Translations under genes and position numbers: made by a program
NCBI GenBank assembly: GCA_903872345.1
Contig: CAIQKM010000194.1
Span: forward strand, 5,448-37,447
Direction: 5' to 3'
Length of the DNA stretch: 32,000 nucleotides
Origin: an uncultured Verrucomicrobia subdivision 3 bacterium
Lineage (GTDB): Bacteria > Verrucomicrobiota > Verrucomicrobiia > Limisphaerales > UBA11358
Shown here: piece by piece, positions 1-29,159 of the stretch
How the letters are laid out: each line of letters opens with the position of its first letter
Numbering within the stretch: the first letter of the stretch is position 1
Notes under the pieces: model-generated
What the model was told of the DNA's origin: nothing
The model's database searches: none
What the model saw: the letters and a program-made list of their open reading frames with translations, nothing else

Positions 1-3000
1 ATGCCAGATGGGATCCATCGGGAGTCACGTCAAGGGAATGAACCAGCTGGTTTCCCGCGTGTTCTCGGAAGGTGTAAATCAGCTCTCCATCCTCGTTCAT
101 CTCCCAGATCTCGTGGTACAGACTGACGAACAAGCGCGAGCCCGAAGCGACCCCATTGCGGGCTTCGTCGTGCGACTCGAATTCGACGGTTCGAATCGGA
201 GTACCAGCAAGGTCAAGAAGGTGCAGTCTATGCCTTTCGAGCAGCGCGATCCGGTTGTCCGTAGCCATCGTTTGGATAAGATTCCCGAAATTCTGCGCTG
301 CGATCGAGGTCAAGCTCGGGGGTACACGGCCTGCATCGATCTTACGAATGATCCTCCCAGTTCTCGCGTTCCAAAGGATCGCAGGGTCCATTCCCGCGAC
401 GGACACCACGGTTCTGTCCCCGTTCGCCAGACAGCAGTCCAAGACTCCCGAGGTATGGCCGACGAGCGCAACCTGAGGCGCGTGGAATCCTAGCCGCCGA
501 CTTGAGAATGTCCACAATCGCTCTGACAGGTCGAGCGAATCTAGGGCAGAGGCCGCGAGTTCCCTTACGGATTCGATGCCGCTGTTGAGGCAACACTGTG
601 CCAGAGCCGCAGGGAATAGCGCCAGAAAGGGGGCCTCCATGCCCAGTATCGTACGCAGGTCCATGACCTTCCCGGCGAGCAACCGAACCGGTTCAGAATC
701 GTCGCACGCTTCGAGGATCAGGTCCAGATCATCCAGAAGGTCGTACACGCCGGCATGCCCAGTTTGCATCTCGCTGCTAGCTCGCCGCCTAAGGAACTCG
801 AACCGTCCGAGCAGAGCGCCCAGCCGATCGAGCTGTCGCGCGCTACTCATCTGGTAAACAACCTCGTGTAGGGCGTGACGATTGCCCAGCGGCCACTGTG
901 CGTTAAAGTAGTCCGCCAACCGCCGGTGAGGTTGCCAACTGTGCTCGGAGGCTTTCACGAAATGTTCCTGCACCCATTCGGCCACCTGACGGTGGTAGAA
1001 CGTCAACACGTTGGCACCGGGAGCGGCCCGCTCCGTGAGGTAAGGCGCAAGATCAAAGCGGAGCCGCGACCAGATCGCAATGGGAATGCGCGTAGCACTG
1101 GCGGGCAGTTCATGGCGAGCCTGCTCAGTGGCCAGGTCGAGCGCCGCCTTGTAGTCGGGGTCGGCAAACAGGACTTCCAGGATTTCGTTCTCCGCCAGCC
1201 CATGCCGCGAGGCGGCGAGATAGCCCAACACGTGTTCCACCAGCAGCCGACCGTGGTTCGCAGGCTGACCAAGTCGTTCGATGAGCTGACCGAGAATCGC
1301 GGGCACGCTCTCGCCCAATTTGGGTGCTGCATCGTAGGAGCGCCAGAGCCGGGCCTCCTCGAACAACAGCTTGAGATAAATCGGCTGGCGGCATTCCTTG
1401 GACTTTAGAATTTGCTCGATGTGTTCTCGCTGCTGGTCACTAACCTTGCGCCCCGCCTGATGCAGCCAATTCTTAAACAGAAGCGTGCTGGCATCGTCCT
1501 CCGAGAGTGCATCCAAGTTTATGGAATTCTTCGCGATGAGTTGTCGTCGCGTAAACTCGGCAAATGGCTGGCCGGCCAGGTCGTCTGCGCGGTCAGACAG
1601 ACATGACACAACAAGCTTCACATGCGGTTGCAACTGACCAGTCGGAATCCAATTCAGCAGCCGGCCATTGTCCGCATCGGAAAGCTGATCCAAGGCATCC
1701 AGAAACACGATCAGTGGTTGATCTGGTGTGGCGGATTTGAACTGCTCACGCAATTCTTCGGTCAGTGCCTTTATATCCGATGGAATTTCACCCTCTCGCT
1801 GATGTAGCCCGCGCAGTTGCTGGCATAGGCTACGAAGCAGCAGGCGGATGTCAGACGACTGTGGGGTTGTGCCGATGAATCGAATGATCGGCTTCTTAGT
1901 CTTTGGGATTTCGTCGAACGCCCGCGCCAGCAGGGCCGTCTTGCCGCAGCCGGAGGAACCATAAACCACCAACGGCCAAGGTGAGACATTTCGCAAGTAA
2001 TCGCGGATTTTCTCCAACTCGGTTTGTCGGCCGACAAACGACTTCGCGCCGCCACGTTCACGGCCGAAACGCGCGTGTTCGTCCTGTTCTATCTTCAGTT
2101 CACGCGCGGCACGTTCCGCTGAGGCTTGCGTGCTTTTGTTCCAATACTCTTCAATCTGCCCCCGGATGATCTCCGTCATCCGCTTTTCCACATCGGCGCA
2201 TAGTTGCGTTAGATGATCCGTCGTGACGTCTGCGGTGGGTTGGCCTTGGGCGTCGCTCGTCAGAACGAGCCGGGCGGAATCTGAGAAAACATTCTTTTCA
2301 CCCAGCCGTTTGCGCAGCGCTTCCTTCAGCCGTTCCTGCTCCGCCCCGAGTGCGGCATCAATTCTCCCGGACGGTTCCAAGTCAACGAAGTCCTTGATCT
2401 GTGCCGGTTCGGAGAACTCGCCGACATTCTCGATCTGCCGGAAGAACGCCAGCACATGCTCCTGCGCGTCCGGAGCGCACAACGCACCGTGCCAGATTTC
2501 CTGCTCGGTGGCGGAGGCTTGAAAGCGGACGATAGCCGGTGGCGAACCATCCGCCAGAGCCGCCTCGTCGAAACGCTCCCGCAATCGCTCCGGCGGCTGG
2601 ACGCGATTGATGATCGCCCACAGGATGGCTTGGATCTCGTTCCAAGGCGCATCCTGCGTGTAGTCCTTCGCGTCGGGGAGTTGCTGCCGGCGGGATTGCA
2701 GGAGATAGCCGGGCGGAACTGCATTGTCATCCTTCTGATACCACTCCCGCAGAACCGCAGCAGCCGTGCTGCTCGCCACCTGCGCGGCGGCGTGCTCCAG
2801 TGCTTGGAATTCAGCCACGGAAATCTCTTCCGGCAAGGGCCGCCAGCCATAGCGATTGCCCAGCAGGATCAGGAAATTGGGCCGGGGCGAGATCTCCTGT
2901 GCGCGCCGCAGTTCGTCAAAACAAATCCGCATCGTGCGGTGATCCAGACCTGCTTCGCTCGACACGCCCCAGCGGAGGTCAATGGCCTGAAACTGAAAGC

Positions 3001-3142
3001 CGTTCTGCGCGCAAAGCTGTTCCAGTCTGGGAAACACCTGCGCCTGCAGTGCATTGCGCTCCGGCTTCAGGTCGCTGAACGTCGAACTGACGAAGACGCG
3101 AATGACGGGCCGGAAACGAGGCGTGGAGTTTTGCTGGATCAT
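1..3142 (-). CDS. NWD1-like STAND NTPase: DUF4062-type N-terminal domain + NACHT P-loop NTPase + WD40-like repeats; the 3' end runs off the left window edge
   Basis: Absent from the ORF track because the frame is open to position 1. My translation from the ATG at 3142..3140 gives MIQQNSTPRFRPVIRVFVSSTFSDLKPERNALQAQVFPRLEQLCAQNGFQFQAIDLRWGV, the DUF4062 signature as I recall it from animal NWD1. Walker A is VVYGSSGCGKTALLARA (~1925-1965) and a Walker B-like LIVFLDALDQ lies at ~1690-1720. The C-terminal region has WD40-like blades (GHTSGVLDCCLANGDRTVVS). All listed minus-strand ORFs in 1-3142 are in the other two frames. The start lies 16 nt after the stop of the upstream gene. Confidence 0.85.
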   Translation of the reverse strand, partial: MIQQNSTPRFRPVIRVFVSSTFSDLKPERNALQAQVFPRLEQLCAQNGFQFQAIDLRWGVSSEAGLDHRTMRICFDELRRAQEISPRPNFLILLGNRYGWRPLPEEISVAEFQALEHAAAQVASSTAAAVLREWYQKDDNAVPPGYLLQSRRQQLPDAKDYTQDAPWNEIQAILWAIINRVQPPERLRERFDEAALADGSPPAIVRFQASATEQEIWHGALCAPDAQEHVLAFFRQIENVGEFSEPAQIKDFVDLEPSGRIDAALGAEQERLKEALRKRLGEKNVFSDSARLVLTSDAQGQPTADVTTDHLTQLCADVEKRMTEIIRGQIEEYWNKSTQASAERAARELKIEQDEHARFGRERGGAKSFVGRQTELEKIRDYLRNVSPWPLVVYGSSGCGKTALLARAFDEIPKTKKPIIRFIGTTPQSSDIRLLLRSLCQQLRGLHQREGEIPSDIKALTEELREQFKSATPDQPLIVFLDALDQLSDADNGRLLNWIPTGQLQPHVKLVVSCLSDRADDLAGQPFAEFTRRQLIAKNSINLDALSEDDASTLLFKNWLHQAGRKVSDQQREHIEQILKSKECRQPIYLKLLFEEARLWRSYDAAPKLGESVPAILGQLIERLGQPANHGRLLVEHVLGYLAASRHGLAENEILEVLFADPDYKAALDLATEQARHELPASATRIPIAIWSRLRFDLAPYLTERAAPGANVLTFYHRQVAEWVQEHFVKASEHSWQPHRRLADYFNAQWPLGNRHALHEVVYQMSSARQLDRLGALLGRFEFLRRRASSEMQTGHAGVYDLLDDLDLILEACDDSEPVRLLAGKVMDLRTILGMEAPFLALFPAALAQCCLNSGIESVRELAASALDSLDLSERLWTFSSRRLGFHAPQVALVGHTSGVLDCCLANGDRTVVSVAGMDPAILWNARTGRIIRKIDAGRVPPSLTSIAAQNFGNLIQTMATDNRIALLERHRLHLLDLAGTPIRTVEFESHDEARNGVASGSRLFVSLYHEIWEMNEDGELIYTFREHAGNQLVHSLDVTPDGSHLA

Positions 3143-3158
3143 GGCATTGTAGCATGCA

Positions 3159-3875
3159 TCAGTAACCCGTGCGCAACCGCCAAATTGCATCGTTTACAGT
3201 CGCGCAAACTTGCTTGTCAACCGCATTTTCACGGAGAAAAACCACGCCTGAAGTCTCGCCATCAACCAGATAGAGAACCTTGTTTCTCTCGGCCAGCGAA
3301 GTTATCATTGACAACTCGACGTGCAAGTTACCGGAGTGACTTCTTAAGTCCACCAAGACCCGCTCACACAACCGCAGATAAGTTGACACAACTTTTTCCC
3401 AACCGACAATTCCAGAAGTCCTCGATGTCGTGAATAATGTGTGCAGTTTCAAATCAAACCCTCTCTCCGCATCGGTATAATTGTCCCGGAGTAGATGAAA
3501 CACTTTGGCCGGGAAAAGCGCCGGAAACAGAAATGGCAAGAGTTCGTTGCACTTCGATCCGGAGACTCCGAGGAGCAAGACAGAGGGGGGCGTCATCCAG
3601 CTTATTAATTGGCCACCAGAAATGCAGCATACAGCAATGACGAATGCCGGTTTATCCGCGCCTAGCGAGAACGGCAACAGTAAAAGAACCCCCACACAAG
3701 TGATAGGCAGCCAAATTCTTCGGGAAGCAATTTGGGTTTTGACGTGCTGGCCCACATGAGGAAAGAAGCGGCTGCGTTTCCGAAGCCAAGTCGAGGCTAA
3801 CTGAATGACGCTCGGCGCAAGAAGGAGAACAGATGTGCCGATGATGAGTTTTTCGATCATGGGTGTGACAAGCAT
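3159..3875 (-). CDS. Hypothetical membrane protein (3-4 N-terminal TM helices + ~120-aa soluble C-terminal domain)
   Basis: 238-aa ORF with an ATG start. Hydrophobic stretches include LIIGTSVLLLAPSVIQLA, IWLPITCVGVLLLLPFSL and PAFVIAVCCISGGQLISW. It starts 3 nt after the upstream stop and ends 16 nt before the next start, so it looks operonic. I recognise no family. Confidence 0.5.
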   Translation of the reverse strand: MLVTPMIEKLIIGTSVLLLAPSVIQLASTWLRKRSRFFPHVGQHVKTQIASRRIWLPITCVGVLLLLPFSLGADKPAFVIAVCCISGGQLISWMTPPSVLLLGVSGSKCNELLPFLFPALFPAKVFHLLRDNYTDAERGFDLKLHTLFTTSRTSGIVGWEKVVSTYLRLCERVLVDLRSHSGNLHVELSMITSLAERNKVLYLVDGETSGVVFLRENAVDKQVCATVNDAIWRLRTGY

Positions 3876-3878
3876 CCC

Positions 3879-4496
3879 TCAACGGTAAATCTTGATAACT
3901 CCTTCATTTTCGGCTGCTGAACAGAGCTCCGGGAAAAGCTCTTGAAGCTTTCCCTGGCTCAAGGAAGCCGGGTGTTCGCGGATCACGCTTGATCGAACAA
4001 CCATACTTCCAGAGAATATGAGCAGAACCAACGACCAACTTGGATTCTCCACCAAGTCAAAGAAGATGCGCATTTGTCTCTCCGGGTCTCTTTCTCTCAC
4101 ATTTGGATTCGCGTTCGAAAGCGCAACAAATTCGTTTGTCTCGTCCGACAGTGTCCGCAGCAAACGATCAGGACTCGGTGAAATCGAATTGCCAGCAAAA
4201 TCTACTGAAGCGTGCAATACGTTCGGAAGAGCGTCCCATGCGGGCGCAATTTGCACAATTTGATTAGGTCGCGAGCCGACGCCGCGCGCAAGCTCTAGCC
4301 CAATCGCAAAGAATCGGTCGTGAAGCGGGCCACCCGGACCAATGAGAGATCGCGGAGCTTTCTCGGCAAGTATTTGCAACCGAACCATAGCAGGAAATGG
4401 ACACTGCAATCTCGATAGACGCTGAATCTCGTTCAGAACGGACTCCGCCTGCGCGTGGGTCAGCTTGCGGGTGAACAATGCGGAAAATATACTCAT
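3879..4496 (-). CDS. Hypothetical protein, 205 aa, no recognisable domain
   Basis: ATG-started ORF that begins 27 nt after the stop of the TIR-NACHT gene and ends 3 nt before the next gene. Only short ORFs lie on the opposite strand. Confidence 0.5.
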   Translation of the reverse strand: MSIFSALFTRKLTHAQAESVLNEIQRLSRLQCPFPAMVRLQILAEKAPRSLIGPGGPLHDRFFAIGLELARGVGSRPNQIVQIAPAWDALPNVLHASVDFAGNSISPSPDRLLRTLSDETNEFVALSNANPNVRERDPERQMRIFFDLVENPSWSLVLLIFSGSMVVRSSVIREHPASLSQGKLQELFPELCSAAENEGVIKIYR

Positions 4497-4523
4497 AAAC
4501 GGACGCTTCTTTTGGTTATCATT

Positions 4524-7253
4524 TCATTTTTCAGGTTGCCCCAGCAACGATTGAACTGAACGCGTGAGCTTTGCCTCAAGAGCTTCCTCGGCATCGCGAA
4601 CAGCAATGCCGACAGCGCCCCACGGGTCGCTATCGCAGTCGGCAATTGCCTTGAAACGTCGAGCCAACCAAATATCGGAGACGGTTTGAAATGGACGCAG
4701 ATGAAGGGCTGCCAGAGCGGCCGACAGTGCCTTTTCTTCGTAGTTCAGAAATTCCCATGCACTGTCAACCATTGATGGTCCATAGCCAGCCCGGATTCGT
4801 GGAGTCTTCATCACCTCTGCCAACGCGTTTCCAATTTCTGTTCGCGTCGCAATCAATATGCTGCTTGGGCAAGAACCTTCGGCTTGCTGTCGTAGAACTT
4901 CAGCAACCTTGACCACAGCGGACAAATCATCGGCGAATAAAAGCAAAGCTTCACGGCAAAACTCCGCGCATCGTCGCTCAGAATTACCACTGCTCACCCA
5001 TCGCTTTGAAAGTTCACATGCTTTCTGGAACATCTCCTGACGCTCAGAAAGGTAGCGCGACATGACCGCGCCTCCTCCCTCGGCAGCGGCATTGTGAATG
5101 ATGGCGTTGAACTCTTTTTCGGCGAATTGAAAAAGATGCCACGCTGCCCCAGCCAACCCAAAATAGCCTTTGCTGTTTTTCTCCGCGTCGAGGAAATCGC
5201 TCGAAACAGACATCGTTCCCAAATTGGCCGCCTTCAACTTTCGGAATTCCTCACTAAAAAGCAAAGCGCGGGCATCCTCGAAACGGCTTGCTCCGGCTAG
5301 ATGGTAAACAACTTCAGAGAGTGCTATTTCATCTTTTTGCCAGCAGGTCAGGAAGCAATTCGCCAGCAGCCGATGACCTTCCACGAGGCTCACGAAAAAT
5401 GCTCCAGCTTTTTTCTCGTTCGTCAACCAGTCGGCAAGCGATTTGTGAAATGCCTTGATTACCTCTCGCGGTGATCCCGAATCTACAGGAAATAGAAATC
5501 CGAGAGGGCTGTTGACGTCGTGAACGTCATCCAATAAACGCTGCGCGTTGACGGTTTTCTGGATCGGTTTGACAACCACGCGGCGCGTTTCGTTAGTAAT
5601 TGGAAACAACGAGCCGAGCGGGCGAGTGAAATCGCGGAGTTCCTCGTCTTGCCAGTTGAAAAGGCGTTGAAGGATTTCCACGGGCAGCGGTTCGCGGGCG
5701 GCGAGGATGGCGCGCAGCGCGGGGCGCACGTCTTTGCGGAATTTATCCAAGTCGGGAAAGTATCGCTGGAAGTCCAGGTAGAACTTGCCGGCGAGTCCTT
5801 GCGGGAATTCGTTTGGCCGATCCAACGATAGATAATTTTTGCAAATGTCCTCGCAAAAGCTTTCGACGTAGAGGAATACGCCTTCGCTCTTATCCAGGAT
5901 TTGCTCCACGAGACGGTCGGCGTCTGGACGGTTCTGGAGTTGCACCGCCAGTTCGCGCCGCAGGTAGGCGCGGATGTCCTCGCTGTTGGCGGCGGATTTG
6001 GTCTCGAAGGGGAATGGCTTCAGCGCCTGGAAAGGCGTGGTCACGTCAAACTCCGGCCGGCTGGTGACGACCAGGCCAATCCAGTCGGGAAGCTGCCCGG
6101 CATACTGGGCTAGGACTTCCACGAGTTCGTTGCGTCCGTCCTCGCCTTGGGCACTGGCAATGCCAGCTTCGTCGAGCGCGTCAATGACGATCAGATACCG
6201 CTCACGTCCGCCGGTGATGGATAGCTTCAAGGGGTTGGTGAGCAGGCCGTCGAACAGTTCTGCGGAATTCTTCCGGTCCAGTTCGGTCAGGATCGGCAGC
6301 GTCAGCAGCAGCTTGCGATAGTCGGGCAGCCGGGTGGCAATCTGGAACGCCAGCGTGCGAATGATGCGGCAGGCGTCGCGGTGATCCGGTTTCTTCCAAT
6401 CGCAGAACTGGACGGCGATGACGGTGCCCCGGCCATATTCATGCGCGAGATGGGCGGCGAAGGCGCTCTTGCCAATGCCCGGAGCGCCCATGAGCCAGAA
6501 GAGACGTGCGTCTCGCCCGGCGGTGGTTCGCCACTTTTCAACGGCCTGGAACAGCCACGTCCGCCCGACCAGTTTCTTCTCCAGCAATTGTCGGATGCGG
6601 GCATCGGCCGCGAAATCGGAAGCCGTCGGCTTGAGCTGTTCTTGGAGCGTTTCGATTTCGCCGGCAAAGCGCCGGCTTTCGTCGCTCTCCACGACGGCGA
6701 CGATCTCGGCGAGTTTGGCCTGATACCACTGCTCCCACGCCGTCTCGCCCGCAGCGCAGCGTTCCTTCCAGTCGTGCATGTCGAGCCATTGCATGTGGCT
6801 GATGCTGGGCGGCGGTTTCACCTCGCGCTCGCTCTCGACGAGGATGGTCTGGATATTGCCGCCTTTTGCGCCAATCGCAATGCCGATTTCATCAAGGCAG
6901 ACGCCGGGATCGCGCGTGGAATGTTTCGAGAGGAAGGACAATACGCGGTTGCTCTGCAAAATGCCATCAGTGATGGCGCGCCGCCATTCGTCGCCAAACT
7001 TGATTTCGTTCTTGTCGAACCAAACATCATGGCCGCGCTGTTCCAAGTCGACTTTAATACGACGAACCAATTTCTCGTTCGCATCATGCCCGTAACTAAG
7101 GAAGATGCGGAGCGGAGCAAAAGGTTTCGCGGGAGTGAACTCGATTTTACAGTCGTAACAAACGAAGGCGACGGAGTCTGGCACAGCCATAATTTTGGCC
7201 GAGCCGCACTGAGGGCATTTGGGTTTACCCGGCATGGCTTGCTCCTGAGTCAT
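4524..7253 (-). CDS. Zinc-ribbon + TIR + NACHT/STAND NTPase + helical-repeat protein (bacterial NLR-like)
   Basis: 909-aa ORF with an ATG start. The N-terminal zinc ribbon reads CPQCGS...CYDC. The TIR domain (~6710-7105) reads RIFLSYGHDANEKLVRRIKVDLEQRGHDVWFDKNEIKFGDEW...VLSFLS...CLDEIGIAI and retains the conserved Glu. Walker A is FWLMGAPGIGKSAFAAHLA (~6455-6495) and Walker B is YLIVIDALDEA. The C-terminal ~450 aa look alpha-helical. Confidence 0.9.
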   Translation of the reverse strand: MTQEQAMPGKPKCPQCGSAKIMAVPDSVAFVCYDCKIEFTPAKPFAPLRIFLSYGHDANEKLVRRIKVDLEQRGHDVWFDKNEIKFGDEWRRAITDGILQSNRVLSFLSKHSTRDPGVCLDEIGIAIGAKGGNIQTILVESEREVKPPPSISHMQWLDMHDWKERCAAGETAWEQWYQAKLAEIVAVVESDESRRFAGEIETLQEQLKPTASDFAADARIRQLLEKKLVGRTWLFQAVEKWRTTAGRDARLFWLMGAPGIGKSAFAAHLAHEYGRGTVIAVQFCDWKKPDHRDACRIIRTLAFQIATRLPDYRKLLLTLPILTELDRKNSAELFDGLLTNPLKLSITGGRERYLIVIDALDEAGIASAQGEDGRNELVEVLAQYAGQLPDWIGLVVTSRPEFDVTTPFQALKPFPFETKSAANSEDIRAYLRRELAVQLQNRPDADRLVEQILDKSEGVFLYVESFCEDICKNYLSLDRPNEFPQGLAGKFYLDFQRYFPDLDKFRKDVRPALRAILAAREPLPVEILQRLFNWQDEELRDFTRPLGSLFPITNETRRVVVKPIQKTVNAQRLLDDVHDVNSPLGFLFPVDSGSPREVIKAFHKSLADWLTNEKKAGAFFVSLVEGHRLLANCFLTCWQKDEIALSEVVYHLAGASRFEDARALLFSEEFRKLKAANLGTMSVSSDFLDAEKNSKGYFGLAGAAWHLFQFAEKEFNAIIHNAAAEGGGAVMSRYLSERQEMFQKACELSKRWVSSGNSERRCAEFCREALLLFADDLSAVVKVAEVLRQQAEGSCPSSILIATRTEIGNALAEVMKTPRIRAGYGPSMVDSAWEFLNYEEKALSAALAALHLRPFQTVSDIWLARRFKAIADCDSDPWGAVGIAVRDAEEALEAKLTRSVQSLLGQPEK

Positions 7254-7519
7254 CCTGACCGATTCCTCAAATAGCGTCCATGCTTAATTTGTCGCTTTAA
7301 CGTGAAAGGTCGATTTGGTCGCATCTAATTTTAATTAGGCCTTTTGTAGCAATTCAAAGTCCAAGCTATCGACGCTTGTTTCCATCACCCAACTTTTTTG
7401 GATTGAACGGGTATTTCAAGATACCAAATCCGAATTGGGACTGGCCGATTTTCTGTTGCGCGGCTGGCAGGCGGCATCACTCTATGGCGATGGTTCCCCA
7501 GTTCTTTCTAAACACTCAC

Positions 7520-8335
7520 TTACACAACAAAGGCGAACAGAGACTTGGGATCCGCTGGAAGACGAACTAAATGTAACCCGCGCGGAGTGCACCAGAGTAC
7601 ATCCTCCAGCAGTTCATCAACGGCAACTCCGCTACCCATGACCACGCCGACGGTCGCGCCCAAAGACAAGGCAAGCCGGTACTCAAACGCCGCAATCTTG
7701 CCGCCGCCAAAGCCCAATAGCCGCACATCTTCAGGCTTGATGCCAGACGCTAGAACATCCTGCCAGGCATGGAGCACTTGAACGGGTGAAAATCTCGTGG
7801 TGTCGCTCATAATAAGTTTGTCATAGCGATTATCCTTTACCGCGTCCTTCGGCAGAGACTTGGGAATATAGCCGAGCAAACGAAACTTTTTGATGCTGGC
7901 ATTCGCCAGATAGACAGTAGCCTCGCCTATGCAACCGGGGACACCCGCTGTCGTGCCACCACAGATCACCGTACCGCCAAAACCCGCCAGCGCCTCCTTA
8001 AGCAATGCCGTCACGTGGATCATTTCTTCGGGCTTCATGCTGGCGGCCCCGCCGGCAACCATCAAAACTGGACTATCTATGCGGGTTGAGTCCAAGCCGG
8101 CGTTCTTCAAAGTACTCGCGGACGCGTGGTCCAAGACATATGCCAATCCATGGGCAAAGGCGGCATAATCCGGAAATTGCCTCGCGCACGCTTCGATCTG
8201 GTGCCGATGCGCTGTGGAGCAGGGATTATTGCTCATGGTTTTGCTCTGTGCCATTATGTATCTACGGCACGAATTTTCCACTTCCGAGGAATATCTCGAA
8301 TAGTCGAGTTGGCCGAAAGCCTTGGCGACAGTCAC
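7520..8335 (-). CDS. Stand-alone SLOG-domain protein of the TRPM/LSDAT type (LOG/DprA-like Rossmann fold)
   Basis: 271-aa ORF. Motifs VLMVAGGA, TVICGGTTAGVPGCIGEA, LLGYIP, LIMSD, LLGFGGGKIAAFEYRLA and VVMGSGVAVDELL occur in the same order as the glycine-rich SLOG motifs of the TRPM N-terminal MHR1/2 region (recalled from memory). The track start at 8335 is GTG; in-frame ATGs at 8254 and 8236 are alternatives. It begins 31 nt downstream of the AAA-RyR gene. Confidence 0.8.
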   Translation of the reverse strand: MTVAKAFGQLDYSRYSSEVENSCRRYIMAQSKTMSNNPCSTAHRHQIEACARQFPDYAAFAHGLAYVLDHASASTLKNAGLDSTRIDSPVLMVAGGAASMKPEEMIHVTALLKEALAGFGGTVICGGTTAGVPGCIGEATVYLANASIKKFRLLGYIPKSLPKDAVKDNRYDKLIMSDTTRFSPVQVLHAWQDVLASGIKPEDVRLLGFGGGKIAAFEYRLALSLGATVGVVMGSGVAVDELLEDVLWCTPRGLHLVRLPADPKSLFAFVV

Positions 8336-8366: not shown

Positions 8367-11201
8367 TCACCGATTGAGTGGCAAAGCCTTATACTTGGCG
8401 GTTTTAAGTAATTCGGGAATGGATTTAACCGAGGAGCGGTCTTTATCCTGGTCTGACGGCGAAAGTTGCGCCCACGGAACCAAGGCATGGTGTAGCTTCA
8501 ATTCAGGGTTGCGCGGCTTGCCAAATTTCCACCCCGATCCAACGCGCTCAGCGCACCAACCGACATGTTCCGCTTTAGCCAGCCGGTCCAGGTGTTTTTC
8601 AATGGCCGCATTGAGCGGGGCCTCCCAAGCGATATCATTTGACTTTGCCTGCCGTTCTACCATAAAACCAATCAAGGAAAGATGTTCGGGAATACGACGT
8701 GCGGCTGCACGGTTGGAGGCCTTTAAATCTTCGGGAAGATCTTTGTATTCCTTTTTGACGGAAGGATCGATAGTCCACTCCAGTTCGGGATTAGCTTTCG
8801 ATTCGGCCAAGATTTTCGATTGTTTGGCATTATCCAGAAAATTAAAGTTGACCGCTGCTGCTAAATCTTCCAAATCCGGATGGTTGACGAACGCATCGCT
8901 GTGTGTCATCAGATTGTAAAAGCTCCCGGCATCGGTGTCTCTGGCTAATAATGGAGCTGGGGGCAAGGCCGAGCGGGTTAAACGCCCTTCAATGCGGCCT
9001 TGCACAAGCGCATCCAGAATTTTCTCAAACGACCGGGCTCCATGCCAATATTTGGGCACCCCGATAAGCGCACTGAGCAGCCCGGGATCAATACTCAATT
9101 CTTTCGAGTCTGGAAGTTGGAGAATGCCGCGCAGAAGTAATGCCCGGCGAACGGGCCACGTGATATCGTTTTCATCGCGCGGATTGGGGCCGAGCACGTT
9201 TAGAAACCCATGAAGCCGCGAGACAAAGTCAGGCCCCTTGAGTAATTTAAAGTCGAGAAAACGCTCCCGTTGCTCCAGAAACTTGCGTAAACGGAATTCC
9301 CGGATTTCCGGTTTCATTTCACTCAACTCCGCTTCGCCGGGCTCGACTGGTTCCGCCACGCCAAATTGTTCCAGGCATGGGCTGGTGCCGCCGGCGAAGA
9401 TAAAGATACACTTGCCGATGGGATGGGTGATCTGCCCCTCTTGAAAGGTGCCGTCTTGCATGGGGGCCAGCAGATATTGCAGCCACTTGTATTTTTGCGA
9501 ATCAAACTCATCCCAAAAGGCTACAGGCGTCACGCCTTTTAGCACTTCATCGCGAATCCGATGAAATGCCCCAATGAGTTCGTCCGGCCCCTTAAACTGG
9601 GAGAGGTTAAACTCGATAAAAGGCGATTTTGGACCAAGAATTGCCAAGGCAAGGATTTTTACCGCGAAAGATTTCCCTGCTCCCGGCGGCCCAAACACCC
9701 CAATAGATAGGGGTTTCTTTTGAATTTTCTTCTTCTCATACGCGGTGATAATGGCGTCAATTGTGCGAAGGCTTTCAATTTCGCTCCGGTCTACCGTGAA
9801 GAGGTTGCCTTTATGCAGCGCAGGCACGTCGGACAAAGTTTCCGCCGGACCGTAGCGGGCGGTCAATGCGGCTAGTCCGTACAGAGGGGTTTTATCATTG
9901 GCATCCGATACGGTTTCCGACTGCGCCAGAATGGTCCAGGAGGCGGCGCTGGCATTGAAGCGATCCGGGGAAATCTGAACCGAGGCATAACCAGTCGATT
10001 CATTGGCAATCACCTGACCCAGCTCATAAAAAGGAAATCCAGGGGGGATCTTGTTGTTCACCGGACCATGACCAAGGATGAGTAGTTTGCGGCGGGCATT
10101 TAATCCAGCGGCAATACCCGCATACATGGCTTTCGCAAATTCTTTGTGGCTGGCCAGGAGACTGGGTTTCTCGCCGGGTTTGGGACTGGGCTCCTCCAGT
10201 GCCAGTTGGTGGAGCATCAAATGGTGGGCAATGCCGGCCGTCAAGCAGCTTTGAAAGCCATAAACTGTGCCTTCGAATTGACTCGAAAAATCTCCTCCAA
10301 AACGCTCCCCATCAAAGAATAATCGGTAAGTACGTGGTTCTGCGCCAGACACCCATAGCGCTCCTCCGGACCCGAAATTCACAATCAGATTCGCGGCGTG
10401 AAGAAGTTCCCGAGCAGCTGGCATCCGGTTTAGGGTGGCAATGGTGTCTTCTACGCACCGCTCCCAGGAAAGGCGGGCGTTGATTTGCGCATCCGCCCGC
10501 CGCAGATCGGCCGCGCTAACGATGACGGTCAATCGAGGCAGGATCGGCTTAAGTGCTGGCCACAAATCTCCGCAGCAAAGCGGGTGACTCATTTTAAGCA
10601 CATAGAGGCCGCCGCCATCCTTGGATAAATCCGGCCAGATTCCCCGGCAAACTTCGTGCCTGAACAAAGTTCCACCGTCATCAATCACCGTAACACCAAC
10701 TGGATGGGCAATATTGCTTTTATTTGGGGTATAACAGAAGCCGGACTGCCGGTTTTCGGCCGGACCATATCCAAAATGACTGCCGACATCTGTTCTCCAC
10801 ACCAAGTCCTTGGTATCTTTTTTGGCTGGATGGGGAGTCCATACTCCATAGGAACAAAGATTCAGGGGCGGTTTGGTGGCAAAATCCGGCGCACTCAATG
10901 CGGGGTGGCAGGAGAAGTAGCTGGCTGGACGTACTTCGGAATGCTGCTCTGGGCGCGGAAGTGGTTCTTTTTTGGCTTTGGCCCGGTTTTCATTTCCCTT
11001 TTTCCAATCTGCGTCAGTTTTGTCCCACGCCTTCCCGAGCGCATCTCCGGAAATCACCAGTAATTCAGCGGTCAAGGCAGCGCCACCTGTTTTTTCCTCA
11101 AATACAGTGCCGAGATCAGTGATTGATGTGGCATCGGACTTCGCACCGCCATAAAGATGCGCGTCACGAACAATGTCCCCGGTCACAAGAATGGTTTTCA
11201 T
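8367..11201 (-). CDS. PfkB/ribokinase-like domain + AAA+ ATPase + C-terminal RyR-repeat module
   Basis: 944-aa ORF with an ATG start. The N-terminus reads ILVTGDIVRD...TGGAALTAELL...LIVNFGSGGALWV, which is ribokinase-like. The AAA+ core has GVFGPPGAGKSF (~9665-9700), VAFWDEFDS and IFIFAGGT. The C-terminus (~8367-8880) reads YKDLPEDLKASNRAAARRI...AEHVGWCAERVGSGWKFG...HHALVPWAQLSPSDQDKDR, a RyR-repeat pattern. Confidence 0.85.
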   Translation of the reverse strand: MKTILVTGDIVRDAHLYGGAKSDATSITDLGTVFEEKTGGAALTAELLVISGDALGKAWDKTDADWKKGNENRAKAKKEPLPRPEQHSEVRPASYFSCHPALSAPDFATKPPLNLCSYGVWTPHPAKKDTKDLVWRTDVGSHFGYGPAENRQSGFCYTPNKSNIAHPVGVTVIDDGGTLFRHEVCRGIWPDLSKDGGGLYVLKMSHPLCCGDLWPALKPILPRLTVIVSAADLRRADAQINARLSWERCVEDTIATLNRMPAARELLHAANLIVNFGSGGALWVSGAEPRTYRLFFDGERFGGDFSSQFEGTVYGFQSCLTAGIAHHLMLHQLALEEPSPKPGEKPSLLASHKEFAKAMYAGIAAGLNARRKLLILGHGPVNNKIPPGFPFYELGQVIANESTGYASVQISPDRFNASAASWTILAQSETVSDANDKTPLYGLAALTARYGPAETLSDVPALHKGNLFTVDRSEIESLRTIDAIITAYEKKKIQKKPLSIGVFGPPGAGKSFAVKILALAILGPKSPFIEFNLSQFKGPDELIGAFHRIRDEVLKGVTPVAFWDEFDSQKYKWLQYLLAPMQDGTFQEGQITHPIGKCIFIFAGGTSPCLEQFGVAEPVEPGEAELSEMKPEIREFRLRKFLEQRERFLDFKLLKGPDFVSRLHGFLNVLGPNPRDENDITWPVRRALLLRGILQLPDSKELSIDPGLLSALIGVPKYWHGARSFEKILDALVQGRIEGRLTRSALPPAPLLARDTDAGSFYNLMTHSDAFVNHPDLEDLAAAVNFNFLDNAKQSKILAESKANPELEWTIDPSVKKEYKDLPEDLKASNRAAARRIPEHLSLIGFMVERQAKSNDIAWEAPLNAAIEKHLDRLAKAEHVGWCAERVGSGWKFGKPRNPELKLHHALVPWAQLSPSDQDKDRSSVKSIPELLKTAKYKALPLNR

Positions 11202-11288: not shown

Positions 11289-13088
11289 TTATTGGGGAAA
11301 TATCCCCAACCCTTCTGCCGCCAGGGCTTCGGCCAGTTGCTCGATCTGGGCGTGGTCAATCCGCCGTTCCGTGTCGGGCAGTCTTGCCCAAGGCAATAGA
11401 TCTGGATGGCGATGCCGGTCATCGTCGCGTTTATCGTCATGCACCCAGCCGCCCAGCCAGCGTTCGGCACACCAACGCGCATGCTCCATTGGGGCAAGAA
11501 TGCGTTTTTGCTCTCGGGTAAGGGTTCGGATGGGGATTGCCCCGGCTGTGGCTTCTTTCAGTTTGCCTATCTGGTATCCGAGGGCTCGGGCTTTGATGGC
11601 AATGTGGTCGGCGGCCTGCCGGTTTGATTCCTTGAATTCCTCGCGCAATTCCTCCCACGGTACTTCAGCGGGGCGGGGAGCAATGACCTGGCCAGACGCC
11701 CGGAGTTCGGCCATCCCCCGGCAATATCCCTCATGCAGGGAGCGGGCCGTAGCTTCGTGATATTCGTGGCGGAAGGCACTTTCGCAGCAGGCATTCTCCA
11801 CCATGCCAAAGGGAATAATATCGTTATCCTTCTTGGAAACCGCATTGAGCACACCTTCCAGTGTTTTTTGTGATTTGATCCGCACACAAAGCTTGGCATC
11901 AGAACGGTCCATCAAAATTTCCTGCAAACGCAACCCCACCTCCACGGCGCTGGCGTTACTATCGAGACAGACAAAGAACCGCAGGATGGTGTCGGGCTCC
12001 GCGATCCAGCCTTCGATTAGCTTCAAGGCGACGAGGGATTGAGCCGTGGCTTGATAACACCGTAATTCACAGATCGTGTCACTTTCTAAAATAGGATAGT
12101 GAAATAAGAGATGCTGGCGGTGGTGGTCTGCCTGGCGGTCGATCACGGAAATTCGCAATTTCCGGCCATTGGCAAAATGCCCCATCTTCGCCGCCCGCAA
12201 AGCCAGGCTGCGGCCCATGCGACCAAAGCCCATTATCACCACATGCACCGTTCGCGGATCGTCCTGGGTAATTCCATCCCCATCCAACGGCAATTCTTGC
12301 AAAAGCCGGCGAGCCTCGTCATCGTATACGTCAAAAAAGTTTAGCCGGCCCCCGGTGGCTTGTCCGGATTGTTTGGTAAATTCACGCTGCAAGCGCTCCC
12401 GCAGATGAATATTCTCAAGATGCACAAAACACTCAGGACTATGTAATTGCGACGTTTTGTTCAGATCACGAACTTGTAGGGCAATCCGCAGGTTGGTTTC
12501 ATCTTCCGGAGTGACAATGATCACTTCCTTGGCAAATTCCGCCCGGGCAGCTTTCAGTACCGCCGCTTCCGTAGCATCACCAATCAAATAATAGATGCCC
12601 TCCTCATCACAAATGGAAAGCAACTCATTGTGGGGATTCTTTTCAATGACGATGACCCATTTTTTATCTTTCTGTTTCACACACTGGCGGGCCAGTTGCA
12701 ACCCCTTTTGGCCCAACCCGCAAATAACCACATGACCGCTTTGGGACTGATGTTTTAAGCTCTGCTGATGGCTGCGGGCGGCGAAAAGAAAGCCTTTGAA
12801 CAAACTGACACCAAAAATAACCGGGGCCAGAAACCGGGCGATTTGCAATTCCCATGGCAATGGACCCGGCACATGGTCAAAATGCATGTGGAACAGCCGC
12901 ATGGAGTTGTAAAAAGCATCCACCAAACCTTCCGGATGTCCCTCAGGTTCAGGTACCTGCATAAACCCGAAGGTGCCCAATATTAGCGACAGGATCCCCA
13001 AACCCAGCACCGTCATCCACTGACGACGAGCCGCTCCGTCGTGATGATGGACGGCAGTCGTTTCAGGTTGATGTTCGGAGTCACTCAT
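11289..13088 (-). CDS. Channel-like membrane protein: 2 TM + pore-helix-like segment, two RCK/TrkA-N Rossmann domains, C-terminal RyR-repeat module
   Basis: The track ORF is 11289..13097 with a TTG start; I prefer the ATG at 13088 (MSDSEHQPE...), which matches the paralogous fragment at 20430. TM1 is VLGLGILSLILGTFGF. The pore-like segment is DAFYNSMRLFHMHFDHVPGP (~12860-12925). TM2 is IARFLAPVIFGVSLFKGFLF. The RCK motifs are HVVICGLGQKGLQLA...GDATE and VHVVIMGFGRMGRSLA. The C-terminus (~11289-11745) reads PWEELREEFKESNRQAADHI...MEHARWCAERWLGGW...HPDLLPWARLPDTERRID. Confidence 0.85.
   Translation of the reverse strand: MSDSEHQPETTAVHHHDGAARRQWMTVLGLGILSLILGTFGFMQVPEPEGHPEGLVDAFYNSMRLFHMHFDHVPGPLPWELQIARFLAPVIFGVSLFKGFLFAARSHQQSLKHQSQSGHVVICGLGQKGLQLARQCVKQKDKKWVIVIEKNPHNELLSICDEEGIYYLIGDATEAAVLKAARAEFAKEVIIVTPEDETNLRIALQVRDLNKTSQLHSPECFVHLENIHLRERLQREFTKQSGQATGGRLNFFDVYDDEARRLLQELPLDGDGITQDDPRTVHVVIMGFGRMGRSLALRAAKMGHFANGRKLRISVIDRQADHHRQHLLFHYPILESDTICELRCYQATAQSLVALKLIEGWIAEPDTILRFFVCLDSNASAVEVGLRLQEILMDRSDAKLCVRIKSQKTLEGVLNAVSKKDNDIIPFGMVENACCESAFRHEYHEATARSLHEGYCRGMAELRASGQVIAPRPAEVPWEELREEFKESNRQAADHIAIKARALGYQIGKLKEATAGAIPIRTLTREQKRILAPMEHARWCAERWLGGWVHDDKRDDDRHRHPDLLPWARLPDTERRIDHAQIEQLAEALAAEGLGIFPQ
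12775..13088 (-). repeat. Intact copy of a ~310-bp segment (5' end of the RCK-RyR gene) duplicated in direct orientation at ~20110-20430
   Basis: Nucleotide-level similarity is visible. For example, ggcgatttgcaattcccatggcaa...catggagttgtaaaaagcatc matches ggcgatttgcaattcccacggcaa...catggagttataaaatgcatc, and gatgatggacggcagtcgtttcaggttgatgttcggagtcactcat matches gatgatggacggcagtcatttcaggttgatgttcgtcttcactcat. Confidence 0.8.
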
Positions 13089-13171
13089 CTGATCCAACTT
13101 TGAAATAGTAACGACATCCTTATGCCGGAGACCAGTTTTTTGATGATTAAATTAGAGAATTTCAAGCTGAC

Positions 13172-13269: not shown

Positions 13270-14295
13270 TCAAAAAACAGATCCATGTCTACGTGGAATA
13301 TTTTCCGGCACAAGACTGCCTGGATGCTTATATCTGCCTATCTCTTGGGTCTGGCCAAAATAGGGATAATAATTTGGAAATTTTGCCACCAATAGTGACT
13401 CCGCTTGCGCGTATTTTCTAAACTGCCTAACAAATCTGATAGCATTGGAAACCCAATCCCCATGCTGATACTGATAATCATGCTTAACCACCAGCGACTG
13501 ACGGTGAATGACACGAAAGCCCTGTTGCAATAGACGAAAGCAAAAATCAATATCCTCGCACGCGGCGTTGGGAAATGATTCATCAAACCTGAATTGCTCC
13601 GCTAAGTGCCGGCTGACAACCAAGTTGCAGGTTGGTCCATACAACAAGATGTTGGTTCCCTGGAAGCATCGACCATTCAGGGTGCCGTTGATCTCATGAT
13701 ATTTGTCAAACCAAGTAGCATTGGCAGAATCTGTGCGACCTGACACGCAGTGAATATATGGGTTTTCAACCAGACCGGCGATCGCTTCCGAAACCCAATT
13801 TGATTCCGGGACACAGTCTGAATCTGTGAATAATATGACATCGGCCCCATTTTTTAATGCCACATCGAGCCCTTGATTTCGGGATGCCGCCGGTCCTTTT
13901 GATTTTTCATTGGTCAAAACGTGAATGGTTTCAGGCAGTCGGGACCAAACATCAGAGCCGTCATTGATTACAATAATCGCCGCTGTTTGTTCGACCAGTT
14001 TGTCGATACAGCGCTGCAGTAAAGCAAACTGGGCTTCCGACCTGCACTTCGCCGGAATAATTACCACGCCCTGGGATCGTTGGTTGACTCCATTACGTAA
14101 AATCTGGGGCGGAAGTTCGAGCACCGCTTGGGGCTGGTGTTTTGAACTTGTGACACGGCCGGTTTTTGATGCCTTGTAAGCGATGACCTCAAGGATTTTG
14201 GTCAGCAAAAAACGTTTTCGGCCGGCGCGCCCGCGCATTTCCTCCCACCAGTAATCAAAAGTCTCGCCACTGGGCAAATGAACCAACGAACTCAT
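13270..14295 (-). CDS. Family-2 glycosyltransferase (GT-A fold)
   Basis: 341-aa ORF. Motifs are VVIIPAKCRSEAQFALLQRCIDKLVEQTAAIIVINDGSD, GPAASRNQGL and ILFTDSDCVP (DxD). The start overlaps the upstream stop as ATGA. Confidence 0.85.
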   Translation of the reverse strand: MSSLVHLPSGETFDYWWEEMRGRAGRKRFLLTKILEVIAYKASKTGRVTSSKHQPQAVLELPPQILRNGVNQRSQGVVIIPAKCRSEAQFALLQRCIDKLVEQTAAIIVINDGSDVWSRLPETIHVLTNEKSKGPAASRNQGLDVALKNGADVILFTDSDCVPESNWVSEAIAGLVENPYIHCVSGRTDSANATWFDKYHEINGTLNGRCFQGTNILLYGPTCNLVVSRHLAEQFRFDESFPNAACEDIDFCFRLLQQGFRVIHRQSLVVKHDYQYQHGDWVSNAIRFVRQFRKYAQAESLLVAKFPNYYPYFGQTQEIGRYKHPGSLVPENIPRRHGSVF

Positions 14296-15272
14296 GCGTC
14301 ACCTCCCAGCCAGGCACAATTCCGGCAATATGAATCCTGTTTGTGAGACTGGCGGAATGCTTCCGCCGGACCAGAGTTGAGGATTTGTACTATGTTTCCA
14401 TCCCGGATATGCCCCAGCTTGCGGGGATGAAACATATTGCATGGCGTCACAAATCCATCGTACTGGATGCACGTCTCACGGTGGAGTGCTGGGCAGGCTG
14501 ACCGGGAACCGTTTGATTTAACCGCCGTATGCAAATCTAATTCGATTCCTTGGATCTGGTCGGGGATCAGGCACGGCAGACCGGCGGCATCCAGCAATGA
14601 CTTGGCTGCGATGAAGGCTTTGCGAATGGTTGCCCATTCTGTAATAACCCGATTTAATACGCGATGATCCGGCAAATCGCTCCGGACCACATTATAAATG
14701 AGTCCGAATTTATAGGACTGCGCCAGCCGGGCGATATCGGTAATGCGATGAAGGTTTTCAGCCTGAATGGTGAAAACAATAAAGGGTCGTGGTTGCTGAT
14801 CGCGGAGGAGGTTAAGGTTGCGCTCCATATATTCCCACCGCGCACCTCGTCGGATTTGCGACAACTCCACCGAATCGGACGAATCCAGCGAGATAAACAG
14901 TTGAACCCCTGCGACTTTCAGTAATTCAACCCGTTCAATGTCTCGGATGTTCAGATTGGTAAAGAGATGCAAGGCTGCCGCCGGCCATTTGTCCCGGATG
15001 GCTTTGAGAAACGCAGGGAATTGTGGATGAATCGTGCTCTCCCCACGACCATTCAGCCGCACGACCTCCGGTGGATGGGGAAACGCCGCCAGAACCTGAT
15101 TTAGCGTTGCCTCGGTCATGAAGTAGCCAGGTTGGTTGCGCTCCTTAACGAAGCCACACATGATGCAGGAAAGGTTGCAGTTGTGGCTGAGTTCTAAAAT
15201 CAGCTCGCGCGGCCGGATCAGTGGAGTCAGTTCCGTTGATTGCATTTGAGCACTTTGCACGGGAGGTTGCAT
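14292..15272 (-). CDS. Radical SAM enzyme with C-terminal SPASM-type domain
   Basis: CxxxCxxC motif in ELSHNCNLSCIMCGF. The C-terminal Cys-rich region reads CPALHRETCIQYDGFVTPCNMF...KLGHI...YCRNCAW. The longest track ORF (to 15446) would overlap the upstream gene by 220 nt. In-frame ATGs at 15272 and 15245 give 46- and 19-nt overlaps, so the exact start is uncertain. Confidence 0.85.
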   Translation of the reverse strand: MQPPVQSAQMQSTELTPLIRPRELILELSHNCNLSCIMCGFVKERNQPGYFMTEATLNQVLAAFPHPPEVVRLNGRGESTIHPQFPAFLKAIRDKWPAAALHLFTNLNIRDIERVELLKVAGVQLFISLDSSDSVELSQIRRGARWEYMERNLNLLRDQQPRPFIVFTIQAENLHRITDIARLAQSYKFGLIYNVVRSDLPDHRVLNRVITEWATIRKAFIAAKSLLDAAGLPCLIPDQIQGIELDLHTAVKSNGSRSACPALHRETCIQYDGFVTPCNMFHPRKLGHIRDGNIVQILNSGPAEAFRQSHKQDSYCRNCAWLGGDA

Positions 15273-16054: not shown

Positions 16055-16076
16055 TTAAACGCCGGAGTTGTCTTTG

Positions 16077-18815: not shown

Positions 18816-18827
18816 AACGGTAACCCT

Positions 18828-20640: not shown

Positions 20641-20739
20641 TTAGATGAATATAAACTCGAAATAAATTATATGATTTGGATTCGCCAAGAAGCGATATGC
20701 TTGCCTTGGCAGTTGCATCGCTGCAAACTAAAAACGCAA

Positions 20740-29117: not shown

Positions 29118-29159
29118 GAGCAGTCCTGGCTGCCCAATGCGCAATGCTTCCCTCAAAGT

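Follow-up and report, generated by a model that had tools for sequence, protein, structure and literature searches.

Gene content of the locus

We analyzed a 32,000-nt stretch of DNA (hereafter the window) from an uncultured Verrucomicrobia subdivision 3 bacterium (contig CAIQKM010000194.1), whose left part encodes two different NLR-like STAND proteins, one with a TIR head (TIR-NACHT) and one with a DUF4062 head (DUF4062-NACHT-WD40). The two genes belong to a pair that recurs in other genomes in a fixed order, sometimes as a fusion, and is facultative. In the window, four co-directional genes lie on the minus strand in the order TIR-NACHT, a 205-aa orphan, a transmembrane (TM) protein, and DUF4062-NACHT-WD40 (Table 1). 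This order had been proposed in an earlier note made from the sequence alone, and it is confirmed by the list of open reading frames (ORFs) and by Pfam. Coordinates refer to the whole window unless they are preceded by a contig code, such as L001.

The four ORFs extend over 7253..4524 (909 aa), 4496..3879 (205 aa), 3875..3159 (238 aa), and 3142..<1. The last one stays open for 1047 codons up to the window edge; on L001, a 45-kb metagenome scaffold that contains the window, the full gene (L001 14112-18635) encodes 1507 aa. All 13 homologues of the TM protein begin at MIEKL (3860), which gives 233 aa, whereas the upstream ATG at 3875 would give the previously assumed 238 aa. With this start, the intergenic gaps are 27, 18, and 16 nt. 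The outer two agree with the earlier values, and the middle one, between the 205-aa and 233-aa genes, replaces an estimate of 3 nt.

The TIR-NACHT gene is preceded by a 266-nt gap (7254-7519), which is AT-richer, as had been noticed (45% GC vs 52-59% in the genes), and holds a single consensus match to a sigma-70-like site (TTGAAT-18-TAAAAT, 7357..7328, minus strand). Consensus matching revealed no terminator-like sites in the three short intergenic gaps of the string, and two minus-strand matches in the region, at 4967..4943 and 2939..2927, both inside coding sequence.

The view of the string as a four-gene unit does not hold. Further same-strand genes lie upstream (SLOG, AAA-RyR, and TrkA_N-RyR) and downstream, where the string continues beyond the fourth gene on L001. 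There, past the 1507-aa gene and to the left of the window (L001 18664-20103), we observed three ORFs of 48, 82, and 327 aa. The 48-aa ORF resembles the DUF4062 N-terminus, the 82-aa zinc-ribbon ORF resembles the N-terminus of TIR-NACHT, and the 327-aa ORF carries TIR_2. The three have the look of a second module that has decayed or been rearranged.

Table 1. Features of the gene string and of the genes upstream of it.
Feature	Position	Strand	Basis
TIR-NACHT protein, 909 aa: zinc ribbon / TIR / NACHT-type STAND NTPase / winged helix / variable C-terminal domain	4524..7253	-	Pfam, translated motifs
Zinc ribbon CxxC...CxxC, residues 13-36	7146-7217	-	Motif
TIR domain	6768-7106	-	Pfam; Glu122 codon 6888-6890
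Walker A GAPGIGKS (TIR-NACHT)	6465-6488	-	Motif
Walker B VIDALDEA (TIR-NACHT)	Residues 356-363		Motif
TIR-NACHT C-terminal domain, residues 671-909	4527-5243	-	End of similarity in alignment
205-aa soluble orphan, first gene of a two-gene cassette	3879..4496	-	ORF; 8 clusters
233-aa protein: three N-terminal hydrophobic helices and a C-terminal alpha/beta domain	3159..3860	-	Homologues, hydropathy, AlphaFold
DUF4062 / NACHT-type STAND / NWD1-like winged helix / WD40 beta-propeller protein, N-terminal 1047 of 1507 aa	1..3142	-	Pfam
DUF4062 core	2810-3100	-	Pfam
S-x-T-E-x-E motif SATEQEI, residues 210-216	2495-2515	-	Motif; Glu215 codon 2498-2500
Walker A GSSGCGKT (DUF4062-NACHT)	1937-1960	-	Motif
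WD40 propeller	~538 to past window edge	-	Pfam on full protein
SLOG (LSDAT_prok) protein	7520..8335	-	Pfam 1e-09
944-aa protein: unassigned N-terminal half, weak AAA/MoxR-like P-loop (below Pfam cut-off), C-terminal RyR	8367..11201	-	Pfam RyR 3.6e-11
602-aa protein: two N-terminal hydrophobic segments, TrkA_N/RCK, C-terminal RyR	11289..13097	-	Pfam TrkA_N 5e-22, RyR 6e-13; hydropathy

The two NLR-like proteins

Pfam recovers the domains expected from the earlier reading (TIR, NACHT, DUF4062, and WD40). The 909-aa protein matches TIR_2 (1.4e-20), NPHP3_N (1.5e-22), NACHT (27.2 bits at a cut-off of 26.7 bits), and HTH_TANC1, a winged helix. In an alignment of 13 TIR-NACHT sequences that are 55-84% identical overall (A3), no variation is seen at Glu122 (in CLDE), at the Walker A and B residues, or at about 72 of the 112 TIR positions 51-162. 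The protein combines a TIR fold with the conserved catalytic glutamate, the hallmark of enzymatic TIR domains, and is predicted to have a NADase head. Judged by their motifs, both large proteins are STAND NTPases of the NACHT clade, with Walker A, Walker B, and a winged helix. The similarity of TIR-NACHT to most homologues stops near residue 670; thus, the C-terminal domain is the variable part.

Scans of metagenomes and reference genomes yielded a TIR-NACHT family with 49-86% identity over ~650 residues. Its hosts are metagenome-assembled genomes (MAGs) of Desulfobacterota, Planctomycetota, Verrucomicrobiota, Acidobacteriota, Bacteroidota, and Hydrogenedentota, as well as Chlorobiaceae, anammox bacteria, Hyphomicrobiaceae, and MAGs of two Methanoregula archaea. 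The closest reference-genome loci to the TIR-NACHT gene of the window come from a Syntrophobacteraceae MAG. A natural explanation for such a distribution over many phyla and archaea is wide transfer of the family. The Methanoregula MAG contigs (L073 and L080) encode homologues that are 56-58% identical and have RyR genes nearby; if the binning is correct, these copies imply cross-domain transfer.

The TIR-NACHT protein of the window also has a 38-residue insertion in the winged-helix region (residues ~556-593, ~5475-5590; A3 columns 587-624) that is missing in the 12 homologues. By eye it repeats the neighboring PLGxLFP...R.V.K segment, yet BLAST finds no match between them, so that a tandem duplication is a visual impression only.

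The second protein matches DUF4062 (7e-10, profile positions 1-76 of 82), AAA_16 (1.7e-13), NPHP3_N (1.8e-08), and HTH_NWD1, whereas its NACHT score of 26.6 bits lies slightly below the cut-off. The WD40 signal is weak inside the window, and clear beta-propeller matches appear at residues 869-1345 of the full protein on L001. The Walker B motif reads VFLDALDQ. The head retains the core motifs of the DUF4062 family (R-x-F-x-S-S-T-F ... DLRWG ... RYG), and an insert of ~95 aa separates the RYG strand from the glutamate motif. The SATEQEI-type motif is kept in all orthologues of the window type, and the second glutamate of S-x-T-[E/A]-x-E is retained wherever the motif was found among DUF4062 relatives.

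DUF4062 has recently been described as a TIR-like NADase that defends through NAD+ depletion, with the active-site glutamate at E97 in KpSwz and E1008 in human TEP1 (10.64898/2026.05.01.722283; 10.64898/2026.06.25.731849). On this basis, both NLR-like proteins of the window carry heads of the TIR superfamily, and conservation of the motif suggests that Glu215 is the counterpart of KpSwz E97. Because NWD1, NWD2, and NPHP3 were inactive as NADases in vitro (10.64898/2026.05.01.722283), the activity of the DUF4062 head in the window cannot be assumed and is a prediction only. Three DUF4062-NACHT homologues with 50-65% identity (P0031, P0033, and P0080) match TIR_2 or ThsB_TIR in addition and have no repeat-domain matches; each would hold two TIR-superfamily domains.

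Recurrence of the TIR-NACHT/DUF4062 pair

The TIR-NACHT scans of metagenomes and reference genomes gave 68 distinct loci from at least 8 phyla. Fifty of them have at least 1.2 kb of readable downstream sequence, and half of these (25/50) have a co-directional DUF4062-STAND gene no more than 3 kb further on; for 18 of the 25, the distance is at most 1 kb. Upstream of TIR-NACHT, 50 loci are readable over 3 kb or more, and a DUF4062 gene is present in just 3 of them; a single DUF4062 copy is encoded on the opposite strand. The DUF4062 gene often starts 15-40 nt past the TIR-NACHT stop codon, as in L023, L034, L044, and L086. Sixteen of the 25 downstream partners belong to the DUF4062 subtype found in the window.

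Three loci demonstrate in-frame fusions of the two genes: L026 (1194 aa), L057 from Verrucomicrobia (1261 aa), and L065 from Bacteroidales (1178 aa). In Pfam, the fusion ORFs combine TIR_2, NPHP3_N, HTH_TANC1, DUF4062, and a second AAA_16/nSTAND1 NTPase. The L057 and L065 products are colinear across the fusion junction and 54% identical overall; the DUF4062 half is far less conserved, and its frame is open.

Another example is provided by L029, with the order AAA-RyR, TIR-NACHT, two ORFs of 167 and 163 aa, a 306-aa protein similar to the 233-aa TM protein, and DUF4062-NACHT-TPR (1501 aa). Here, the stop codon of the AAA-RyR gene overlaps the TIR-NACHT start. TIR-NACHT is 67% identical to that of the window and DUF4062-NACHT 37%, while the TM protein is seen by profile only. 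Thus, the multi-gene order of the window recurs in a strongly diverged form. Eight TIR-NACHT loci have a RyR gene on the upstream side together with a DUF4062 gene on the downstream side.

The ratio of 25 downstream to 3 upstream partners, together with the three fusions, shows that the pairing is recurrent; it is also facultative in both directions. This asymmetry, the fusions, and the gene order of L029 show that the two STAND genes do not stand together by chance, and they speak against the outcome that the earlier note had named as undoing its proposal, namely that the four genes never occur together elsewhere. Co-conservation of the whole four-gene block is a different matter: its order persists in diverged form in L029, whereas the exact block was found only in the lineage of the window. 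The suggestion of a paired-NLR arrangement survives insofar as the pair is recurrent, ordered, and sometimes fused; its facultative character does not fit, and there is no sign of a division into sensor and helper. Nothing separates the two proteins in this respect, as neither has lost its catalytic head, its P-loop motif, or its C-terminal region. The median length of TIR-NACHT proteins is 810 aa where a DUF4062 partner is present and 978 aa where it is absent; the difference is not significant (Mann-Whitney p = 0.15), and helper-like shortening was rejected.

The 205-aa and 233-aa genes

The two small genes between the STAND genes form a cassette of their own. Neither product has a match in Pfam, NCBIfam, PADLOC, or PHROG, and both families are rare, with 8 (205-aa) and 13 (233-aa) clusters in 5.8 billion proteins. 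A 205-type gene is followed by a 233-type gene in all contexts with readable downstream sequence, except L010 and two ENA relatives. The 205-aa family gave no match in the scan of reference genomes, and its window member has neither a PDB-sequence nor a Foldseek match and yields a poor AlphaFold model (pLDDT 64).

The 233-aa protein proved more tractable. Three TM helices are predicted, in line with the earlier description of a multi-TM protein. Among 1.84 billion proteins, a profile search with the family retrieved 205 representatives, of which about ten are close. The remote family shares the pattern PPxxLLLGxS...R...W..VV...VD.R..S..L..E, with L97, S100, R147, and E182 invariant (alignment A4). 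Pfam found nothing in ten relatives (eight remote and two close), and profile searches of the family against PDB sequences gave nothing meaningful. The AlphaFold model (pLDDT 78, pTM 0.77) was compared with known structures by Foldseek. The matches of its C-terminal domain include a phage nucleoside 2-deoxyribosyltransferase (NDT; E 4e-3, probability 1.0), the BtpA TIR domain (E 0.015), and DNPH1 (E 0.03); over the NDT/DNPH1/TIR range, E is 4e-3 to 0.1, probability 0.9-1.0, and target-normalized TM-score 0.5-0.66, all weak scores. These matches weakly point to a TIR/NDT-like nucleotide-binding fold. TM helices joined to a nucleotide-binding domain would be the usual layout of signal-activated membrane effectors. 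The earlier idea that the small membrane protein is a downstream effector fits this architecture and the recurrent linkage of the family to TIR genes.

This linkage is observed in about seven of ten distinct contexts of the 233 family, where a TIR gene is adjacent or near (the window, L004-6, L011, L019, L029, L088, and L105). In L004-6 the order is TIR, 205, 232, two ORFs, DUF4062-STAND-TPR, and SIR2; in L010 it is TIR, a 75%-identical remnant of the TIR domain of TIR-NACHT, 205, and DUF4062-NACHT; and in L011/12 a cassette of 203 and 354 aa lies next to TIR genes and a RelA_SpoT-SLOG-RyR gene. Most TIR-NACHT/DUF4062 pairs lack both small genes. At the BLAST level, the exception among TIR-NACHT loci is L019, where a 233-like gene stands behind a TIR-NACHT with the same C-terminal domain. 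The broader profile, applied to all fetched loci, added remote members at L088 (Hydrogenedentota, directly behind TIR-NACHT), at L105 (near TIR-STAND and TrkA-RyR genes), and at L029/L030 (between TIR-NACHT and DUF4062-NACHT, as in the window). Because the 233 family is so extremely rare, five occurrences in about 70 TIR-NACHT loci cannot be chance. From its contexts, the cassette is a separately mobile module that has its own strong link to TIR genes.

The composition of the locus is mosaic. TIR-NACHT residues 1-670 have a GC content at third codon positions (GC3) of 0.69 and DUF4062-NACHT one of 0.68, compared with 0.51 for the C-terminal domain of TIR-NACHT, 0.52 for the 205 gene, and 0.56 for the 233 gene. 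These values fit the import of a single ~2.1-kb block (3159-5243), consisting of the C-terminal domain and both small genes, which would have entered an older TIR-NACHT/DUF4062-NACHT tandem. A phage origin of the cassette is unsupported, with no viral-contig match and no PHROG match for either protein.

Two further observations concern relatives of this region. The 167-aa ORF of L029 (5608-6111) starts with MSIFTKLLG, resembling the conserved MSIFSALF start of the 205-aa family, with no other detectable similarity. As the match is limited to 12 N-terminal residues and is not significant, the 167-aa and 163-aa ORFs of L029 were rejected as 205 homologues. L004 and L005 (15051-17288 and 8342-10579, minus strand) encode a 745-aa protein with a weak TIR_2 match and a phosphofructokinase (PFK) domain beside the SIR2 and DUF4062-STAND-TPR genes.

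RyR and SLOG genes upstream

The genes upstream of the 266-nt gap with its promoter-like site encode the SLOG protein and two RyR proteins. Homologues of the SLOG protein occur near TIR-NACHT in L022, L032, L033, L058, L063, L091, and L107, and the SLOG gene is probably part of the same system. The RyR repeat of the 944-aa protein matches Repeat12 of RyR1/RyR3 at 8e-16. Near-full-length homologues of this protein are encoded directly upstream of TIR-NACHT in L029, L049, L059, L093, and L105, partial ones in L075 and L098, and homologues of the 602-aa protein in L076, L085, L090, and L052. In total, 18 of the 50 loci have a RyR gene upstream of TIR-NACHT and co-directional with it, in nine cases as the adjacent gene. 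The 602-aa TrkA_N-RyR protein looks like a candidate effector of the ion-channel type.

To our knowledge, RyR domains have so far been known only from phage counter-defence and from animal calcium channels. Domains of this family (PF02026) bind and cleave 2'cADPR as well as 3'cADPR, two isomeric forms of cyclic ADP-ribose (cADPR) (PMC13232231), and SLOG is the 3'cADPR receptor of ThsA (10.64898/2025.12.03.692087). Considering this reported binding and the 18 loci with RyR genes upstream, the gene string probably starts further upstream than the TIR-NACHT gene, and the unit probably reaches from ~13,097 to beyond the left window edge.

Proteins of 838-852 aa that join RelA_SpoT, SLOG, and RyR are encoded in L011/L012 (9-2525), near the 203+354 cassette and TIR genes, and in L135 (4344-6902), directly upstream of DUF4062-NACHT-WD40. 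Their (p)ppGpp-synthetase-like domain may serve as an output linked to the sensing of ADP-ribose (ADPR) signals.

Other genes in the window

The region at 13270-19994 encodes, on the same strand as the TIR-NACHT/DUF4062 string, an SbcC/Rad50-like ATPase (912 aa) and a metallophosphoesterase (388 aa); next come two radical-SAM/SPASM proteins and a glycosyltransferase of family 2. On the plus strand, 20605-23181 encodes a third STAND protein with a TIR head, of 858 aa (TIR_2, NB-ARC, and TPR). The 467-aa protein at 24613-26495 (minus strand) has a C-terminal TIR_2 domain, and its first 4 nt are shared with the end of a 160-aa ORF upstream, for which no family match was found; the two may be another small TIR system. 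An IS21-type element, with an IstA-like transposase (542 aa) and an IstB ATPase (267 aa), occupies 26728-29156 on the minus strand.

Possible function and alternative explanations

We give an even chance to the reading of this region, based on its gene content, as a composite, horizontally mobile, NAD+-centred immune locus built around two linked, non-obligate NLR-like STAND proteins. In such a locus, binding of a phage cue, either to the variable C-terminal domain or to the WD40 propeller, would release NTPase-driven oligomerization, which would gather the TIR and DUF4062 heads and switch on NAD+ cleavage. The TIR head could yield ADPR-derived signals, e.g., cADPR isomers. These would be read by the RyR and SLOG proteins (the channel-like 2-TM/RCK/RyR protein and the P-loop/RyR protein), with the 233-aa membrane protein as a possible further reader, while the DUF4062 head would deplete NAD+. 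The infected cell would stop growing or die.

Several observations weigh against this reading. At 25 of the 50 TIR-NACHT loci, no DUF4062 gene follows. Seen from the other side, TIR-NACHT lies within 7 kb of only one of four sampled DUF4062-NACHT orthologues (57-70% identity); for one of the four, the gene directly in front is instead RelA_SpoT-SLOG-RyR. Each NLR has the full set of head, NTPase, and C-terminal region, as in the single-gene Avs and bNACHT systems. Fragments and tandem paralogues are present at L025, L031, L050, and L131 (and as orf48 and orf82 in L001), so that the adjacency, and even the fusions, could stem from birth-and-death recombination. PADLOC, which the earlier note had proposed to run, recognized no known defence system at the locus and no Avs or bNACHT model, giving weak TIR-domain or P-loop matches only. 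At the BLAST level, the 205+233 cassette is missing from all 56 reference-genome loci, and in L007-9, L013/14, and L015-17 it occurs on its own next to genes for integrases or transposases. The fold assigned to the 233-aa protein stands on weak Foldseek scores, and an hhalign comparison of its family with a TIR alignment is not significant (probability 0.3%); for these two reasons, we speak of a TIR/NDT-like fold and do not name it a TIR domain.

Much of this would also be expected if the window held two independent single-gene systems, one TIR-Avs/bNACHT-like and the other a DUF4062-STAND, that are adjacent since STAND genes pile up in defence islands. Each NLR would then have its own trigger and its own NAD+ depletion, and the fusions and fragments would be by-products of recombination between paralogues. 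The complete layouts with intact motifs, the facultative pairing in both directions, and the common arrays and fragments agree with such independence, as does the third TIR-STAND in the window. Moreover, the partner DUF4062-STANDs belong to unrelated classes (24-40% or 49-91% identity) beside a near-constant TIR-NACHT. However, independence leaves unexplained the strong asymmetry in order and strand, the very tight spacing, the fusion junction kept open in two phyla despite a diverged second half, and the repetition of the multi-gene order in L029, and we consider this main rival rather unlikely. A separate question is whether the 205+233 pair is a self-contained mobile module, a minimal defence or addiction-type one, that landed between the NLR genes by chance and plays no part in their function. 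Its solitary occurrences beside integrase and transposase genes, its absence from most TIR-NACHT/DUF4062 pairs, and a GC3 unlike that of the flanking conserved NLR parts can be explained in this way. The frequent proximity of TIR genes, the five occurrences at TIR-NACHT loci despite the rarity of the family, and the remote member in the same slot of L029 cannot easily be. In addition, the low-GC3 block takes in the C-terminal domain of TIR-NACHT, which suggests that the import reshaped the NLR itself. A chance landing is therefore improbable in our opinion.

The role of the RyR and SLOG proteins can also be turned around: as brakes, they would be sponges or glycosidases that clear stray ADPR-type signals and so avert autoimmunity from both NLRs. 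Phage RyR-domain proteins do degrade or sequester 2'/3'cADPR (PMC13232231), and the RyR domains of the window are bona fide RyR repeats. But here they are fused to large output-like modules (2 TM and RCK; a P-loop ATPase; RelA_SpoT-SLOG in L011 and L135), the usual layout of signal-activated effectors, which makes the brake hypothesis very unlikely. A bolder version of the composite immune locus is a bacterial NLR relay, in which a TIR-NACHT sensor would respond to a phage cue by producing an ADPR-derived messenger for the RyR, SLOG, and 3-TM TIR/NDT-fold receptors, and the messenger, by itself or via these receptors, would call on the DUF4062-headed NLR as executor. We regard such a relay as a long shot. 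If true, it would be a prokaryotic counterpart of the plant cascade from a TNL through a small-molecule receptor to a helper NLR, and it would provide a native role for host RyR domains as receptors of cADPR isomers.

The current view of bacterial NLR-like proteins is that each is a self-contained sensor equipped with its own effector. A pair of two different NADase-headed NLRs that recurs, at times as a fusion, and is accompanied by RyR and SLOG genes and a new family of membrane proteins would mean that multi-component NLR networks exist in bacteria. The locus would also give host RyR domains a cellular role, and it would make the DUF4062-NACHT-WD40 layout, known from human NWD1 and TEP1, accessible in a tractable bacterial model.

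Comparison with known systems

Each protein of the locus is a further member of a known family. The arrangement itself appears to be undescribed, as we could not find the RyR / TIR-NACHT / DUF4062-STAND combination in the literature searched. The closest prokaryotic relatives are the antiviral STAND proteins Avs and bNACHT. They share with the window proteins an enzymatic N-terminal head, a STAND NTPase with Walker A and B motifs, a winged helix, and a variable or repeat C-terminus, as well as the defence-island setting and horizontal spread; by its motifs, the architecture in the window is compatible with this class. Unlike Avs and bNACHT, which are described as single genes, the window has an ordered, sometimes fused pair amid RyR, SLOG, and TM genes.

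Thoeris-type systems (types I-XI) resemble the locus in having a TIR gene beside domains that bind ADPR derivatives (SLOG, and RyR by analogy with RyDEP) and effector-like TM proteins. However, the TIR of Thoeris is the small ThsB protein, whereas in the window it heads a NACHT NTPase. A systematic survey of TIR signalling explicitly discarded TIRs in Avs proteins, and 'RyR' appears nowhere in its main text.

Plant paired NLRs (RRS1/RPS4 and CHS3/CSA1) and the TNL-EDS1-helper relay likewise involve two linked NLR-type genes with at least one TIR head, and small-molecule relay components, as in the TNL-EDS1-helper relay, may lie nearby in the window. The plant genes are arranged head-to-head, whereas those of the window are in co-directional tandem, facultative, and both equipped with catalytic heads. 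Pfam recognized no integrated decoy in either window NLR. The relation to the plant pairs is one of analogy only, with no homology of the arrangement.

The DUF4062 head, with its S-x-T-[E/A]-x-E glutamate, connects the locus to Swarozyc, NIR, and Evangelion, and to TEP1, NWD1, NWD2, and NPHP3. Swarozyc and Evangelion differ in combining DUF4062 with an auxiliary domain and no STAND NTPase, whereas the protein of the window has both the STAND NTPase and the insert of ~95 aa. NWD1 and TEP1 are closer in layout, as they share the succession of DUF4062, NACHT, and WD40, and the window protein accordingly has matches to HTH_NWD1 and NPHP3_N.

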